Program-made: the position numbers and the translations under genes
Shown: in pieces, positions 75-5,439 of the stretch
Position numbering within the stretch: position 1 is the stretch's first letter
How the letters are laid out: each line of letters starts with the position of its first letter
Source of the DNA: an archaeon
Lineage (GTDB): Archaea; Iainarchaeota; Iainarchaeia; Iainarchaeales; CSSED10-239
Direction of reading: 5' to 3'
Assembly (NCBI GenBank): GCA_041677685.1
Contig: JBAYPN010000039.1
Coordinates: forward strand, 1-5,483
Length of the DNA stretch: 5,483 nt
Notes under the pieces: generated by a model
Told to the model about the DNA's origin: nothing
Database searches by the model: none
The model's input: only the letters and a program-made list of their open reading frames with translations

Positions 75-1094
75 ATGATTGAATATTTACTATTTTATTT
101 TTTTATGTTTCTGTTTGTATTTTTAATTTCTTTATTTCTAATGTTTAAAATAACTCCTAAGCTAATAGATATTATTAAAGCAAATAATTTTGTTGGAAAA
201 GACATGAATAAATTAAACACACCTTTAGTTGCAGAGCTAGGTGGAGTTCCAGTCTTAATAGCTTTTGTTTTATCCTTATTAATTTTTTTATTATTCTATT
301 TTATTTTATTTAGAGGTGTGATGTTATTGAACATCTTAGAGTTTTTAATAATTATTGTTACTTTGTTATTTATTATTTTTTTAGGATTAGTTGATGATAT
401 TCTAGGTTGGAAAAAAGGAATTAGTCAAATTCAGCATTTTCTGTTCCCCTTGTTACTTTCAGTTCCAATAATTGTTTACACAATTTTAGTTGGTTATTCT
501 TCCATATATGTTCCGATTTTTGGAGTGGTTAGTGTAGGTGTAATCTATTCTTGGTTATTTGTACCTATAGCCCTAACAGCAACCACAAACTCTTTTAATC
601 TTTTAGCAGGCTATAATGGTTTAGAGACAGGTCTTGGAATATTTATTTTTTTAACAATTTCTATATTAGCATTTTTTTCAAATAACTTTACATTATTAAT
701 TATCTTAGGTGCTTGGTTAGGTGCTCTTGTAGGCTTTTTAAAATTTAATAAATATCCAGCAAAAATATTTCCAGGAGATGTTATTACCTTAGCAAATGGA
801 GCTTTTGCAGGAATTTGTGCAATCATTCTAAAAATGGAAATCTTAATTGCTTTTTTAATTTTACTTTACATTATAGAGTTTATTATAAAGGCAAGGCACA
901 GGTTTAAAACAGAATGTTTTGGAATAATTCAGAAAAACAAAACTATTCTTCCAAACCCAAAAGGAGGCTCATTAATCCATTTGGTTTTAAGAAGAGGAAA
1001 GTTTACAGAAAAAAGTTTAGTTAATAGATTTTATATTTTCCAAATAATTATTTCAATTTTTACAATACTTTTTTATTTTTTATTTTATTTCTAA
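75..1094 (+). CDS. Glycosyltransferase family 4 (PNPT superfamily) polyprenyl/dolichyl-phosphate N-acetylhexosamine-1-phosphate transferase, AglH/GPT(Alg7)-like
   Basis: The 339-aa ORF is a highly hydrophobic multi-TM protein. It carries the PNPT signature motifs GKDMNK (aa 41-46), LVDDILGWKKG (aa 105-115), NSFNLLAGYNGLETG, and PAKIFPGDV. The D-x-NK and NxxNxxAGxNGLE arrangement is typical of archaeal/eukaryotic GPT-type enzymes rather than MraY. An SD-like AAGGGA sits at 63-68, 6 nt before the ATG. Confidence 0.85.
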   Translation: MIEYLLFYFFMFLFVFLISLFLMFKITPKLIDIIKANNFVGKDMNKLNTPLVAELGGVPVLIAFVLSLLIFLLFYFILFRGVMLLNILEFLIIIVTLLFIIFLGLVDDILGWKKGISQIQHFLFPLLLSVPIIVYTILVGYSSIYVPIFGVVSVGVIYSWLFVPIALTATTNSFNLLAGYNGLETGLGIFIFLTISILAFFSNNFTLLIILGAWLGALVGFLKFNKYPAKIFPGDVITLANGAFAGICAIILKMEILIAFLILLYIIEFIIKARHRFKTECFGIIQKNKTILPNPKGGSLIHLVLRRGKFTEKSLVNRFYIFQIIISIFTILFYFLFYF

Positions 1095-1104
1095 ATTCTA
1101 AAGG

Positions 1105-1965
1105 TTGATGTTTGTTATGAAACTAATTACTTTTAAGCAATTTATTTTTTTATCAAGACCAATTCTTTTTCCATTACTGATTTTATGTTTGTTTGTTGCT
1201 TTATTATTTTCTACATCTTTAACAAATATTGGTGTTACTCATATAATTTACATAATTTTACTTTCTTTTTTATTTCCTTTTTTTATCTTTGCAATTAATG
1301 ATTATTATGATTATGATTCAGATATCAAAAATAAGCGAAAAAATAATATTTTACAAGGTATGGTTTTTAAAAATATTTCTGAATTAAAAAAGGCAATTCT
1401 TTTGTATGACTTAATAATTTTTCTAATACTGTTTTTATATAGTTTACTTTTTAATAACTTAGTTCATACACTCTTACTTTTACTTTTATTTTTTGTATGC
1501 TTCTTTTATTCTGCAAAGCCATTAAGATTTAAAGAAATACCTTTCATTGATTCTATTTCAAATGGAGTAATTGTTTTTTTAGTCTTTGCATTAATGTATA
1601 CATTATTCAATAATTTTTTTACAATCCCCTTCAAAGTAATTGCAATTTCCATAAGTATAATGTCCTATCACTTAATAGCAGCACAACTAGATGTGCGTTC
1701 AGACCTTTCAGCAAAACACAAAACATCTGCAACATTTATTAATAATAGATTTTTAGTATACTTACTTTGTTTATTCTACAACCTGCCTTTACTTTTCATA
1801 AACTTAGGCTCAATTTTTAAATATTTATTTTTTATTAATTTATTTCTAATAATCTATATTTATTTTAATAAAAATTTCAATAAAAAAAGATTACTTATTT
1901 TGTTTTTAATTTCTTGGGCACTATTGACTATAGTTTATATTTTAAAAAGCATTTTGCTTTTCTAA
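1105..1965 (+). CDS. UbiA-family integral-membrane prenyltransferase (subfamily undetermined; DGGGP-synthase-like or polyprenyl-phosphate-modifying)
   Basis: The 286-aa ORF is a polytopic hydrophobic protein. The first Asp-rich motif NDYYDYDSD (NxxxDxxxD, aa 65-73) follows an RP-containing N-terminal segment (LSRPILFP). The second motif is DVRSD...KHKT (DxxxD then K-T). The track start at 1105 is TTG, and ATG codons at 1108 and 1117 are equally plausible starts. The gene lies only 10 nt after the GT4 stop, so it is probably co-transcribed. Confidence 0.8.
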   Translation: MMFVMKLITFKQFIFLSRPILFPLLILCLFVALLFSTSLTNIGVTHIIYIILLSFLFPFFIFAINDYYDYDSDIKNKRKNNILQGMVFKNISELKKAILLYDLIIFLILFLYSLLFNNLVHTLLLLLLFFVCFFYSAKPLRFKEIPFIDSISNGVIVFLVFALMYTLFNNFFTIPFKVIAISISIMSYHLIAAQLDVRSDLSAKHKTSATFINNRFLVYLLCLFYNLPLLFINLGSIFKYLFFINLFLIIYIYFNKNFNKKRLLILFLISWALLTIVYILKSILLF

Positions 1966-3032
1966 AATTCAAAAATTCTTTTCTGCACTTTAATATTTTT
2001 AAGCAAATTAGATTGTTCCTTCCAACATCTACTAGTGTTTTTAATTTTTAAAACATCATCTAAATATTTAAAAAGTTCTTCTTGACTTTCAAACCTTAAA
2101 GGATTATTTTTAAGTGCTAACCTTATAGCTTCTCTAATAACCCACACCCCTCTAGAATAATAGTCAACATCTATATCTCTAAAAACAATACACATCCCTT
2201 GTCTTTTATTTAATTTAAGATACTCTGCAACTTCTAATCTTGCTGCATAATATGCTCCAGTTACATTTTTAGCATACTCTTTTCTCGCAGTCCCCATTTC
2301 ATAATCAACAGTAAAAGAAGAATTTTGATTTTCAATCATCTCAAAGCCCCAAGGGTAAGGCAACAAGAGAACATAGAATTTATTTTTTAAAAACGTAAAA
2401 TTAAATAATTGAAAATCATCAATTGTCTGATTTAGTCTAAGATTATCAATAATATCTTTTCCAACAATATCATCTATAGAGGTTATTGCCCATCTTGTAG
2501 GCACAAACACTCTGTTTCTTTTAACTCCTAATAATCCAATTGACAACAGTTGTTCAATTTTATACACATCTTTAGTTTTAGAATAAAGTTCTAAAATTCC
2601 ATCCTTTGCATGTAAAGAGGTATCATTTGTTACTCGATCAATTGTTTTTGGAACTCTAATATTTTTAGTAATTTTTAAATTATTTAAAGAAAAGGAATTG
2701 TTCTTAACTCCAGTTACTTTATCTACAATCAACTTTTTCTTACTATCCACATCAATTTCAAATTCAGTTGTCTTTACAGATTGAGAAATCCACTGTATAT
2801 TGTCTAGTTCTCCTCTAGGGTTAACAGCTTCTTTTTTATCAAATTCCTTAAAAGCAAATTCTTGTGTTTTTCTTTGGGAGTCAACCTCTTCAATTTTTTT
2901 CTGACCCCAATTTTTAGGATCTGATTTTTTTGCAGAGCTAAAGGTCTTATAAAACCCAGGTCCAATAAGTAGATTAGGGTATTTATTTTCAACAACTAAA
3001 TTAAATGGTCTAGAATACGCTTCTTTTTTCAT
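1962..3032 (-). CDS. nreA: Nre-family (NreA-like, DUF650/DUF651) archaeal DNA-repair protein with C-terminal PIP-like box; N-terminal Cys-rich segment absent
   Basis: The 356-aa ORF contains motifs I recognise from the Nre family: YPNLLIGPG near the N-terminus, VPTRWAITSIDD (TRW-ITxxDD), and GAYYAARLEVAEYL. The extreme C-terminus is QKRIFEF-stop (nt 1965-1985), a Qxx[ILM]xxF PCNA-interacting-peptide-like box. An in-frame TGA (complement of 3039-3041) lies 2 codons upstream of the ATG, so no N-terminal extension is possible. Confidence 0.72.
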   Translation of the reverse strand: MKKEAYSRPFNLVVENKYPNLLIGPGFYKTFSSAKKSDPKNWGQKKIEEVDSQRKTQEFAFKEFDKKEAVNPRGELDNIQWISQSVKTTEFEIDVDSKKKLIVDKVTGVKNNSFSLNNLKITKNIRVPKTIDRVTNDTSLHAKDGILELYSKTKDVYKIEQLLSIGLLGVKRNRVFVPTRWAITSIDDIVGKDIIDNLRLNQTIDDFQLFNFTFLKNKFYVLLLPYPWGFEMIENQNSSFTVDYEMGTARKEYAKNVTGAYYAARLEVAEYLKLNKRQGMCIVFRDIDVDYYSRGVWVIREAIRLALKNNPLRFESQEELFKYLDDVLKIKNTSRCWKEQSNLLKNIKVQKRIFEF

Positions 3033-3213: not shown

Positions 3214-3714
3214 ATGGGTAGTTTTTTCAGATTTTTTTATAATAAAGATTCTGCTCCAAAACAAAGTAGGAGAAATAATATTTCAATATTTGTTGATGGT
3301 CCTAATATTTTAAGAAAAGAATTTAATATAGATTTGTCATTAATTAGTAATTACTTAAAACAGCAAGGTTCAATTAAAATTGCAAGAGTTTATCTTGATC
3401 AATACGCAACAGACAAACTAATAGAAGCAGTTGTAAATTTAGGGTTTGAAAGTATAATTACTGTTGGGGATGTTGATGTTGCCATGGCTGTAGATGCAAC
3501 CGATACAGTTCATAATAAAGAAATTGACACAATTGTTTTTGTTACTAGAGATTCAGATTATCTACCAGCAATCTTTAAAGCAAAAAGACATGGTAAAAAA
3601 ACAATGGTTTTTCTAGTAGATGAAGGTTCTGCAATTGCTTTAAAAAACACAGTTGATCAAGTTATCTTTATTAATAAGTTAAAGAAAGAGATCTATGAAT
3701 ATTCCAACAAGTAA
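3214..3714 (+). CDS. NYN-domain (LabA/DUF88-like, PIN-like fold) predicted ribonuclease
   Basis: The 166-aa ORF shows the NYN acidic signature in the canonical order: ISIFVDGPNI (aa 23-32), GDVDVAMAVDA (aa 85-95), and IVFVTRDSDYLPAIFKAKRHGKKTMVF (aa 107-133). Its size and architecture match single-domain archaeal NYN proteins. Confidence 0.85.
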   Translation: MGSFFRFFYNKDSAPKQSRRNNISIFVDGPNILRKEFNIDLSLISNYLKQQGSIKIARVYLDQYATDKLIEAVVNLGFESIITVGDVDVAMAVDATDTVHNKEIDTIVFVTRDSDYLPAIFKAKRHGKKTMVFLVDEGSAIALKNTVDQVIFINKLKKEIYEYSNK

Positions 3715-4192
3715 ACCATTAGTAGAAAATGCATTTCTTGAAAATTTAATGTGTGATAAGTTAATTTTAGATTTAGGTTTTAAAAAGTTTTCAGGATATA
3801 GTTATCTAGTAATCAATACAGATTTAGGTTTTCAAGAAGGTATTTTATTATTTTCAAAAGGAGATGTAGTTGGTTCAATTTATTTTAATTCATTTAATGG
3901 AATTGAGGTCTATGGAAAAGATGCATTTGACTTAAGCATAAGTTCTTTTGGTTACACAGATGGGATATTAAACATATATAGATTAACAGATGAACAAATA
4001 AAATTAATTTTAATATTTAATGATAAAATAAAATTTGATTTTAAAATTAATAAAATAAATGTTTCTAAATTGAAATTTAAATATGATGAGTCTTATTTAA
4101 AAAGTTTCTTAAAAGAAGCACAATTTAATAAAATTGATTTAAGAGCAGACATCATAAATAAATTAAATTTAAGTGAATTGTTGAGGGAATAA
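3695..4192 (+). CDS. Hypothetical protein with a PATAN/DUF4388-like sequence pattern (tentative)
   Basis: The 165-aa ORF has its ATG inside the last 20 nt of the NYN gene, which suggests translational coupling. Residues about 17-107 read ...LILDLGFKKFSGYSYLVINTDLGFQEGILLFSKGDVVGSIYFNSFNGIEVYGKDAFDLSISSFGYTDGILNIYRL. This follows the PATAN/DUF4388 pattern: the segment l..L....sG.L.v, then g.i.f..G.iv.A, then G.eAl..l, then G.f.f. It is followed by a Lys-rich stretch with alternating polar and hydrophobic residues, KIKFDFKINKINVSKLKFKYD. That it is coding is well supported; the fold call is pattern recognition only. Confidence 0.7.
   Translation: MNIPTSKPLVENAFLENLMCDKLILDLGFKKFSGYSYLVINTDLGFQEGILLFSKGDVVGSIYFNSFNGIEVYGKDAFDLSISSFGYTDGILNIYRLTDEQIKLILIFNDKIKFDFKINKINVSKLKFKYDESYLKSFLKEAQFNKIDLRADIINKLNLSELLRE
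4183..4187 (+). promoter_or_regulatory. Shine-Dalgarno-like site (GAGGG) for the Roadblock-like gene, embedded in the 3' end of the preceding CDS
   Basis: GAGGG lies 7 nt upstream of the ATG at 4195. The upstream gene's TAA stop (4190-4192) sits between the two, which is typical coupled-operon architecture. Confidence 0.55.
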
Positions 4193-4194
4193 TT

Positions 4195-4635
4195 ATGTTT
4201 AGAGGTTTAACAAAACTATTAACTAAAATATCAAGTAGAGTATTAAATATTGAAGATGAAGTAAAAGTAATTGGTTTAGATAATTTACTTGAATATAAAA
4301 AAATTAATTTAAGTTCTAGAGATTTAGATGACTTTCTACAAAAGTTAAGATTAAAGCATATAGTTAATCACATAATAGTAACAGATTTAGATGGAATTGT
4401 TATAGGGAGCACAGAAAAGGACCTAAAGGAAGGTTTTAAAAGTGCAGCTATGTATAATTATATTAATAGTGAAATGAAAGACTTGTCTATAATATTAATA
4501 GAATCTAAAGGATGGCAAATAATATTTAAAAACAATAATAAAGTATATTTTATTAAAGCAAATGATAATCTTTCAAAAATTGAAGTTCAAGCTTTAGTAG
4601 ATGATTTAGAAAATTATATAAAGTTTATAAAATGA
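4195..4635 (+). CDS. Roadblock/LC7 (MglB)-like small regulatory protein with an N-terminal cationic amphipathic helix (tentative fold call)
   Basis: In this 146-aa ORF, residues about 42-143 read DLDDFLQKLRLKHIVNHIIVTDLDGIVIGSTEKDLKEGFKSAAMYNYINSEMKDLSIILIESKGWQIIFKNNNKVYFIKAN...VQALVDDLENYI. This follows the Robl/LC7 alpha-beta-beta-alpha-beta-beta-beta-alpha pattern, including the hallmark segment v..iiv.d.DG..ia. The N-terminus MFRGLTKLLTKISSRVL has basic residues at positions 3, 7, 11 and 15 and hydrophobic residues at 2, 5, 8, 9, 12, 16 and 17. Confidence 0.7.
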   Translation: MFRGLTKLLTKISSRVLNIEDEVKVIGLDNLLEYKKINLSSRDLDDFLQKLRLKHIVNHIIVTDLDGIVIGSTEKDLKEGFKSAAMYNYINSEMKDLSIILIESKGWQIIFKNNNKVYFIKANDNLSKIEVQALVDDLENYIKFIK

Positions 4636-4641
4636 TTTAGT

Positions 4642-5439
4642 ATGAGTGAAGTAATTGCTATTGTTTCTGGAAAAGGCGGTGTTGGAAAGACAACACTGAC
4701 TGCAAATTTGGGTATTGCACTTTCTGAGTTAAATAAAAAAGTTTTGTTGATTGATGCAGATATCGCAATGTCTAATCTAAGTTTGTTGATTGGTTTAGAA
4801 AATCCTCCAATAACGCTTCATGATGTTTTGTTAGGATCTTCTTCTTCTCAGGATGCAACTTATGATGCACAAAATGGTTTAAAGATTATTCCGTCTGGTC
4901 TTTCAATCTCTAATTATCAAAGAGTTGATTCTGAAAGATTAGTGTCTGTTGTTAAAAGCTTAATTAAAGAGTATGATTATATTTTAATTGATGCACCTGC
5001 TGGGATTGACAAGAATGTGATTTCTGCAATGTCAGCCTCAACTCAGATCTTGTTAGTAACTGAACCTACAGCTCCAGCTGTTGCAGATGTCTTTAAGGCT
5101 AAGATTGTTGCTGAAAGACTAAATCAAAGAGTCTTAGGTGTTGTTGTAAATAAGGTTAGTAACATCAAAGGAGAAATTACAGAAAAAGAAATTATGAAGA
5201 TGCTAGAACTCCCAAGCTATGGGCAGATCCCATATTCTGAAGATGTTAGAGAATCATTTTTGCTTAAAAAAATTAAACCAGTTTTAGTTCACGCACCAAA
5301 CAGTCCATCCTCAAATTCATTTAGGTATATTGCAAGAAAGATAACAGGTATAGATGTTGATAGTAGTAAAAAGATTATAAAAAAAAAGAAAGGTTTTTTT
5401 GGTTTCTTAAAAAATATTTTTAAAAAAAAGAAAAAATAA
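4642..5439 (+). CDS. minD: MinD/ParA-family deviant-Walker-A ATPase (archaeal MinD-type) with a C-terminal amphipathic membrane-targeting-like helix
   Basis: The 265-aa ORF has the deviant Walker A SGKGGVGKTT with the signature lysine (aa 9-18, nt 4666-4695). It also has the switch I-like LLIDADIAMSNL and the Walker B-like YILIDAPAGI. The C-terminal tail is KKKKGFFGFLKNIFKKKKK (nt 5380-5436). The gene starts 6 nt after the upstream stop, with no obvious SD of its own. Confidence 0.93.
   Translation: MSEVIAIVSGKGGVGKTTLTANLGIALSELNKKVLLIDADIAMSNLSLLIGLENPPITLHDVLLGSSSSQDATYDAQNGLKIIPSGLSISNYQRVDSERLVSVVKSLIKEYDYILIDAPAGIDKNVISAMSASTQILLVTEPTAPAVADVFKAKIVAERLNQRVLGVVVNKVSNIKGEITEKEIMKMLELPSYGQIPYSEDVRESFLLKKIKPVLVHAPNSPSSNSFRYIARKITGIDVDSSKKIIKKKKGFFGFLKNIFKKKKK

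Follow-up and report, generated by a model that had tools for sequence, protein, structure and literature searches.

An unannotated protein with a predicted Roadblock fold and a cationic amphipathic N-terminus, encoded beside MinD in DPANN archaea

The stretch of archaeal DNA analyzed here, a contig of 5,483 nucleotides (JBAYPN010000039.1; the window), encodes at positions 4195-4635 of the plus strand a protein of 146 residues, taken from the listing of open reading frames (ORFs), which carries no annotation and is here called X. X is a real and conserved component of an archaeal MinD operon: it is encoded between a DUF2226 protein and an archaeal-type MinD ATPase, and consists of a cationic amphipathic N-terminal helix, a variable linker, and a core for which a Roadblock/LC7 fold is predicted; it is a credible, though unproven, candidate for a partner of archaeal MinD. 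MinD homologues are widespread in archaea and one of them oscillates; for none of these is a MinC, a MinE, or another activating partner known (PMC13228585; PMC11588486; bioRxiv 10.1101/2020.04.03.021790). By analogy with systems discussed below, the likeliest role of X, in DPANN archaea related to Iainarchaeota, is that of an accessory regulator or adaptor that sits at the membrane periphery and serves the MinD ATPase cycle, a reading to which we give about an even chance.

Gene order around X

In the window, X is the third gene of a tightly packed run of four, NYN-ORF5-X-MinD, in which NYN and ORF5 (a divergent DUF2226 protein) overlap by 20 nt, ORF5 and X are separated by 2 nt, and a gap of 6 nt lies between the stop codon of X and the start of MinD, as recognized by the TIGR01969 family; a preceding interpretation of this DNA (the sequence-only reading), which had placed X immediately upstream of minD, was thus correct in this respect. 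A scan of the window detects no terminator-like sites between the genes of this run, and given both their packing and the lack of such sites, NYN, DUF2226, X, and MinD presumably form a single operon. All 19 of the GTDB loci compared at species level share this order, even without the upstream synteny of GT4, UbiA, and Nre genes, and it recurs, followed by LSM, around the most divergent X members examined (P0086, P0087, P0112, P0123; L028, L029), whose flanks are unrelated. Counted as DUF2226-X-MinD, the arrangement occurs in about 30 independent loci. In several of these the genes of X and MinD overlap: the overlap is 16 nt long in L027 and 4 nt long in L025, L028, and L029, pointing to translational coupling of the two in some lineages. 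Linkage to minD, a feature of MinE-type proteins, is thus shared by X, which lies 6 nt upstream in the window and is adjacent in the other X-containing loci save one: in L023, a 52-residue ORF without family (1080-1238) stands between X and MinD, the sole case of non-adjacency seen.

A metagenome scan with the DUF2226 profile adds a further 29 loci. When all loci are classified by hidden Markov models (HMMs), the invariant core of the module is DUF2226-MinD-LSM, usually with NYN upstream, and X, where present, always lies between DUF2226 and MinD (L001-L029, L053-L057). In a neighbor-joining tree of MinD, the loci with and without X form two clean clades, the former spanning G+C contents of 21-54%; X could have been gained or lost just once to give this bipartition, its position being strictly retained thereafter. 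In most loci of both clades, DUF2226-(X)-MinD is bracketed by the NYN protein (TIGR00288, a predicted RNase) upstream and an Sm-like LSM protein downstream, whose gene in the window's own locus begins shortly past the end of the window (L001:11262-11495); in L031 and L044-L046, NYN is set apart from DUF2226 by 0.7-1.6 kb.

The X family

X reaches the threshold of no family in Pfam or NCBIfam. A word-indexed search retrieves 84 close relatives (at least 58% identity), all of them unannotated, and a protein identical to X is found in public metagenome-assembled genomes under the label 'hypothetical protein'. An exhaustive HMMER search over 1.84 billion cluster representatives yields just 42 clusters (at 50% identity) with E ≤ 1e-3, 23 of them with E ≤ 1e-10; the family is thus small. 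Two sub-threshold hits of X in these collections, to Fuz_longin_1 (E = 0.06) and to VirB11 (E = 0.0015, far below the cutoff), were judged to be noise.

Predicted fold of the core

The AlphaFold2 model of X has a mean predicted local distance difference test score (pLDDT) of 84, rising above 90 in the core, which comprises residues 41-146 (4315-4632, plus strand) and shows the order α-β-β-α-β-β-β-α: α1 spans residues 41-54, followed by strands at 59-64 and 69-72, α2 at 78-93, three further strands at 99-103, 107-113, and 116-122, and α3 at 128-145. This is the topology of the Roadblock/LC7 superfamily, in which a central α2 packs on a five-stranded sheet, with an extra helix at the C-terminus. 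A Foldseek search of the PDB with the model returns 125 matches at E ≤ 1e-3, and the best 50 all belong to this superfamily (Roadblock, LAMTOR, MglB, and Rag C-terminal domains), with a probability of 1.00; LAMTOR2/p14, MglB, Asgard Roadblocks, and dynein LC7/km23 are named among the top matches. At the level of sequence, the relationship is faint, though consistent. The Pfam family Robl_LC7 (PF03259) gives no match in X at E ≤ 1; it is touched by 3 of 37 family representatives, with E-values of 0.004-0.1, and LAMTOR5 by one. A search of PDB sequences with X as a single sequence yields no match, and the family profile finds weak, in-register matches to dynein Roadblock light chains (E = 0.09-0.37). 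The earlier description of the core as Roadblock-like is thus valid as a statement about the predicted fold, for which the structural matches speak, and the sequences, which remain below curated thresholds, mark a very divergent family.

The most conserved stretch of X is α2, GFKSAAMYNYINSE. This is compatible with the mode of dimerization of Roadblock domains, which proceeds through β3 and α2; by analogy with this fold, X is presumably dimeric.

The N-terminal helix and linker

The N-terminus of X, MFRGLTKLLTKISSRVL, forms a cationic amphipathic helix (residues 1-19, nt 4195-4251, plus strand; residues 3-16 in the model), assigned from its hydrophobic moment, its charge, the AlphaFold2 model, and its conservation in the family. 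As stated in the sequence-only reading, basic residues occur at i, i+4, i+8, and i+12 (R3, K7, K11, and R15). On a helical wheel, M1, F2, L5, L8, L9, I12, V16, and I19 all fall inside an arc of 340-100°; the basic stripe spans 200-320° and thus occupies the polar face or its flank, rather than lying strictly opposite the hydrophobic residues, so that of the arrangement originally described the hydrophobic face stands and the exact opposition does not. The hydrophobic moment (μH) over residues 2-19 is 0.63, the highest in X, with a sharp peak at 100° per residue, and is equaled by 0.2-0.3% of 20,000 shuffles. With a net charge of +4 and a mean hydrophobicity (H) of 0.51, the helix has a HeliQuest-type discriminant (D) of 1.9, compared with a lipid-binding threshold of 1.34; both D and H are within the range of the membrane helices of MinD, FtsA, and MreB. 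Judged in silico by moment, charge, and discriminant, X thus has a predicted N-terminal amphipathic membrane-targeting segment of the kind known from MinE, as have about 85% of its family.

AlphaFold2, run on an alignment of 37 sequences, models the helix with a pLDDT of 63-72. Between it and the core lies a linker of about 24 residues, close to the roughly 25 first estimated; it is delimited in X as residues 20-40 (4252-4314, plus strand), begins with the acidic patch E20 D21 E22, and is the least conserved part of the protein, with indels in the family alignment, variable length, and pLDDT values below 50 (at residues 21-25 and 31-38). In as far as the model bears on the question, nothing indicates that the N-terminus is buried as a part of the fold, which would have spoken against an exposed helix, since this low-confidence linker separates it from the core.

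Cationic amphipathic character at the N-terminus is kept in the X family across 20-100% identity. Among 37 divergent representatives, which share 20-59% identity, the net charge ahead of the column of L17 is at least +2 in 84%, and the best μH has a median of 0.53 and is at least 0.45 in 78%; homologues therefore largely retain the helix, and a lack of it in them, which would have refuted the initial proposal, is not observed. Conservation takes two forms along the segment: in residues 2-12 the sequence varies and the cationic amphipathic character stays, and positions 13-21 are conserved more specifically. In the close subfamily, the N-terminus follows the pattern MxxxIxKLxTKxSxKxLNxED, with S13 invariant and L17 and D21 nearly so. 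From these sequence features, the helix is a candidate membrane-targeting and/or MinD-contact segment, and probably membrane-seeking. The succession of a generic basic amphipathic segment, a specific motif, and a dimer-type domain offers an analogy to the membrane-targeting sequence and MinD-contact helix of MinE.

The region following the helix differs among subgroups. In most of the distant members (for example L024:5001-5492 and L053-L056), the helix is directly followed by the motif φ-L-D-φ-D-D-T-x-x-P-x-x-Q. This acidic motif is largely lost in the window's own subfamily, which retains only N-I-E-D-E, and is replaced in a third subgroup (L025, L027-L029) by G-[RKQ]-K-[ST] and a subsequent E/R-rich sequence.

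The adjacent MinD

The MinD of the window (4642-5439, plus strand; 265 residues) scores 262.9 bits against the archaeal MinD family TIGR01969 (minD_arch), at a cutoff of 201.75. It shows the hallmarks of archaeal MinD proteins: besides this score, a deviant Walker A motif, SGKGGVGKT, and a C-terminal amphipathic segment, GFFGFLKNIFKK. The membrane-targeting sequence, KKKKGFFGFLKNIFKKKKK, covers positions 5380-5436 of the plus strand, with a μH of 0.75 for FFGFLKNIFKK. A C-terminal amphipathic helix of this kind is kept in the MinDs of essentially all loci. The nearest solved archaeal MinDs are 1HYQ, 1G3Q, and 1ION, the best being A. fulgidus MinD-1 (1HYQ), which matches over the full length with E = 2.6e-56. 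Two MinDs of the collection are considerably longer, with 425 residues in L028 (5228-6505) and 393 in L029 (5224-6405): a segment resembling a membrane-targeting sequence, RGIIEIILGLLMPKKKR, is followed in them by a low-complexity tail of 130-160 residues rich in Pro, Ala, and Lys, which is unusual for MinD.

DUF2226, the second neighbor

ORF5 (3695-4192, plus strand; 165 residues) scores 21.7 bits against Pfam DUF2226, just short of the gathering score of 22. ORF5 nevertheless aligns throughout with proteins to which PF09987 has been assigned in precomputed annotations, and more of these are retrieved by a profile that includes it; it is described here as a divergent DUF2226 protein. DUF2226, which had not entered the sequence-only reading, directly precedes either MinD or X-MinD in every sampled locus with enough downstream sequence, and as the universal neighbor of this type of MinD it is an equally good candidate for a MinD partner. 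AlphaFold2 yields a confident model (pLDDT 87, predicted template modeling score 0.79), for which a search of PDB folds gives no significant match (best E = 0.066); we found no literature on this family. X and DUF2226 are not recognizable as paralogues (hhalign probability 0.2%).

In most loci without X (L030-L046 and L050), DUF2226 is about 20 residues longer, in a comparison that also took in L027-L029 and L058. The additional tail consists of an acidic or Pro-rich linker and a short, conserved helix motif, [DE][DE]-φ-L-x-x-L-φ-x-x-K (for example EDFLRDLFKGK, DDALKALLGKK, and AEKLKKLLLKEK), and is lacking from the DUF2226 proteins of the window's clade. As the extra helix is acidic or neutral, it is not a like-for-like replacement of the cationic helix of X; to judge from its sequence, the tail may be a partner-binding peptide, whose role may be redistributed where X is present.

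Proposed role of X and alternative explanations

In the role of regulator or adaptor proposed above, X would be made from one transcript together with DUF2226 and a MinD that bears a membrane helix of its own. The N-terminal helix of X would place it on the membrane beside ATP-bound MinD and/or contact the MinD dimer, in the way that the N-terminal peptides of ParB, McdB, and MinE do on ATPases of the ParA/MinD family; its Roadblock dimer would supply an NTPase-regulating or scaffolding surface, and X would work together with DUF2226. The elements of this mechanism have precedents: ParA/MinD ATPases are activated by partners, often through the N-terminal region of the partner (PMC11407121); an amphipathic helix is required both in the NTPase and in its small regulator in the Min system, and likewise in the archaeal Arco/Dip oscillator (10.64898/2026.07.23.738820); and Roadblock proteins such as MglB and LAMTOR are NTPase regulators or scaffolds (PMC9481161, PMC10933270). 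Two more specific forms of the proposal, both drawn by analogy, seem to us improbable: that X is a MinE-like activator of the MinD ATPase or a release factor, which is doubtful, and, to much the same degree, that DUF2226, X, and MinD could constitute a self-contained Min-like membrane patterning system, with the Roadblock dimer as the MinE-like factor.

Several considerations weigh against a regulatory role of X in the MinD cycle. Known Roadblock regulators act on small GTPases of the TRAFAC class, not on SIMIBI-class ATPases such as ParA and MinD. X is absent from 20 loci (L030-L036, L038-L050, L052), in which DUF2226 directly abuts MinD, so that this type of MinD can work without X; and since this sister clade has the same DUF2226-MinD-LSM module, X is not a general activator of archaeal MinDs. 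What archaeal MinDs do is itself uncertain: those of H. volcanii act in placing the machinery for motility and chemotaxis, and not the divisome. As to the helix, the N-terminus outscores every later window of the sequence in just 53% of family members, and amphipathicity and charge scores are inflated in Lys-rich proteins from AT-rich genomes; the better conserved part of the N-terminus is in fact residues 13-21, together with the DDT-x-x-P-x-x-Q of distant members, which points to a specific protein contact, possibly with DUF2226 rather than with MinD or lipid. The weight of the proposal is further tempered by the confinement of X to one uncultivated clade, and dimerization, membrane binding, contact with MinD and/or DUF2226, and an effect on the ATPase or on membrane release are all steps that we infer.

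One alternative, which overlaps with our proposal and which we regard as somewhat unlikely, is that the helix is a protein-protein interaction peptide, binding MinD, DUF2226, or X itself, and that X is wholly cytoplasmic. The most conserved N-terminal positions are indeed specific ones (S/A13, V16, L17, E/D20, and D21, with T-x-x-P-x-x-Q in distant members), ParA/MinD ATPases are typically acted on by their partners through N-terminal peptides (PMC11407121), and a membrane anchor is already supplied by MinD; set against this, residues 2-12 are variable in sequence and yet cationic and amphipathic, which is the signature of membrane-targeting helices, the values of D and H fall in the range of those of the MinD, FtsA, and MreB membrane helices, and binding to lipid and to protein are not exclusive, as both are combined in MinE. 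The main rival is that DUF2226 is the actual activator or partner of MinD, with X as a secondary, clade-specific adaptor, that is, a Ragulator/LAMTOR-like membrane platform that tethers DUF2226, MinD, or cargo and does not stimulate ATP hydrolysis. The presence of DUF2226 in all modules, directly upstream of MinD in the clade without X, the confinement of X to one MinD subclade, the extra tail of DUF2226 in the X-less loci, which hints at redistributed functions, and the presence of a scaffold, LAMTOR2/p14, among the top fold matches of X all fit this division of labor; we consider it rather unlikely even so, as DUF2226 has neither a fold relative in the PDB nor a literature, and nothing independent points to a role in NTPase regulation, as the identity within the window's clade is 61-81% for X and only 36-57% for DUF2226, and as it is X that lies nearest to MinD and is translationally coupled to it in several lineages.

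Much less probable still is that the adjacency to MinD is a matter of gene order only, and that X serves RNA metabolism, with NYN and LSM, or a small GTPase encoded elsewhere. The module is flanked by NYN and LSM in most loci, Roadblock proteins classically pair with Ras-like GTPases, and archaeal loci of various kinds contain Roadblock proteins of arCOG02603 or, separately, MinD-family ATPases (PMC4858521). The outer flanks, however, differ widely among lineages while the order and spacing of DUF2226-X-MinD persist; NYN is sometimes displaced by 0.7-1.6 kb from DUF2226, whereas X is found between DUF2226 and MinD in every locus that contains it; and the genes called in the examined loci include none for a small GTPase, the 4-10 kb around X in L001-L003, L024, L028, and L029 holding no called gene of a Pfam GTPase family.

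Were X to act on MinD, the Roadblock paradigm of NTPase regulation, which concerns small GTPases, would come to include ParA/MinD ATPases, and a third independent case would be added of an NTPase with a membrane helix that is paired with a small regulator with a membrane helix. As a regulator of the Roadblock type, X would then carry an amphipathic helix of its own and have a ParA/MinD ATPase, not a small GTPase, for a partner. If its dimer is indeed the MinE-like factor of a Min-like patterning system, no earlier case would be on record of a Roadblock protein that regulates a SIMIBI-class ParA/MinD ATPase, nor of an activator for an archaeal MinD. The strictly conserved DUF2226-X-MinD operon offers two candidate partners of archaeal MinD that are small, expressible, and testable in vitro.

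Comparison with known systems

In logic, the systems that seem nearest to X are MinE and DipB/ArcoB; in fold, they are MglB and LAMTOR2. Like X, MinE is a small protein encoded beside minD, in which a basic amphipathic N-terminus and a more specifically conserved stretch precede a compact α/β domain; this domain dimerizes, as the Roadblock fold of X is expected to do, and the partner, a putative one in the case of X, is a MinD with a C-terminal membrane helix. The fold differs, being a β-hairpin/helix sandwich in MinE and, as modeled, the α-β-β-α-β-β-β-α arrangement of Roadblock domains in X; MinE is encoded downstream of minD and X upstream; and X is about 60 residues longer, with a linker of about 24 residues, and is missing in a sister clade that has this MinD as well. 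MinE (PF03776) is matched by X neither in Pfam/NCBIfam at E ≤ 1 nor among PDB sequences, searched with the single sequence and with the family profile, and no MinE fold occurs among the 50 best PDB fold matches. The architecture and the linkage to MinD that led X to be put forward as a MinE analogue are thus borne out, but in the lack of a MinE sequence or fold, the likeness is at best one of convergence.

MglB (PDB 6izw, 6hjm), which in Myxococcus and Thermus serves as the GTPase-activating protein for the Ras-like MglA, shares with X the predicted fold, including the extra C-terminal helix, at 10-12% identity in structural alignments. It is likewise small and encoded beside the NTPase thought to be its target, in a system of spatial polarity. 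Its partner, however, is a small GTPase of the TRAFAC class, whereas the neighbor of X is a SIMIBI-class ATPase of the ParA/MinD type: in the loci examined for it (L001-L003, L024, L028, and L029), X shows no pairing with an MglA-type Ras-like small GTPase, the NTPase adjacent to it being MinD. MglB is not known to have an N-terminal amphipathic helix.

The best structural matches to X are LAMTOR2/p14-MP1 and other Roadblock subunits of Ragulator (PDB 3cpt, 5y3a, 6ehp), with E-values of about 1e-5 and target-normalized template modeling scores of up to 0.67. Ragulator is a membrane-held platform of Roadblock dimers that serves NTPases as a regulator or scaffold, and the role proposed for X is likened to this; Ragulator is, however, a eukaryotic hetero-oligomer, its partners are the Rag GTPases, and its anchor is the lipidated LAMTOR1 rather than an intrinsic helix.

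DipB/ArcoB (DUF2073; PMC13228585; 10.64898/2026.07.23.738820) is, like X, a small archaeal protein with an amphipathic helix of its own, and shares its operon with an NTPase that binds membranes. By releasing this NTPase, the GTPase DipA/ArcoA, from the membrane, DipB/ArcoB has a MinE-like function without homology to MinE; it differs from X in that its fold is SepF-like, its partner belongs to the Ras superfamily of GTPases, its helix is internal, and its function has been shown experimentally. Dip/Arco, a GTPase-based oscillator for positioning the divisome that was found in 2026, is a different system, and is reported among DPANN only in Nanohalarchaeota. The N-terminal activating peptides of ParB, McdB, and similar proteins (PMC11407121) resemble the N-terminus of X in being short, positively charged, and located on a partner encoded beside the ATPase; as a rule they are disordered, and the domain that bears them binds DNA or cargo and is not of the Roadblock type. 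Archaeal FleN/MinD ATPases have been described as frequently encoded in operons with unrelated proteins and, separately, Roadblock proteins as occurring in type IV pilus loci (Makarova et al., 2016; PMC4858521); we found no description in the literature of a pairing of MinD with either a Roadblock protein or DUF2226.

Other features of the window

The window (5.5 kb, G+C content about 25%) contains seven genes. Scans with Rfam and for tRNAs detect no RNA genes in it, and a promoter scan, which is of a bacterial type and inapplicable to archaea, performs at the level of chance (20 found, 16.3 expected). Contigs identical to the window are present in assemblies of uncultivated DPANN archaea (GCA_028708135.1 and others; "archaeon" or "Candidatus ainarchaeum sp."), and Ca. 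Forterrea multitransposorum (phylum Iainarchaeota) is among its close relatives. The first gene of the four-gene run (3214-3714, plus strand) encodes an NYN-domain protein of the TIGR00288 family (182.2 bits, cutoff 178.45; Pfam NYN, E = 1e-25). Upstream of it lie genes for a GT4/MraY-like glycosyltransferase (75-1094, plus strand), a UbiA prenyltransferase (1105-1965, plus strand), and NreA (1962-3032, minus strand). The first two (75-1965) are found just downstream of a gene for the oligosaccharyltransferase AglB/STT3, which lies outside the window (L001:3470-5449), and given this neighbor, the region looks like an N-glycosylation cluster. NreA is convergent to UbiA and overlaps its stop codon by 4 nt.

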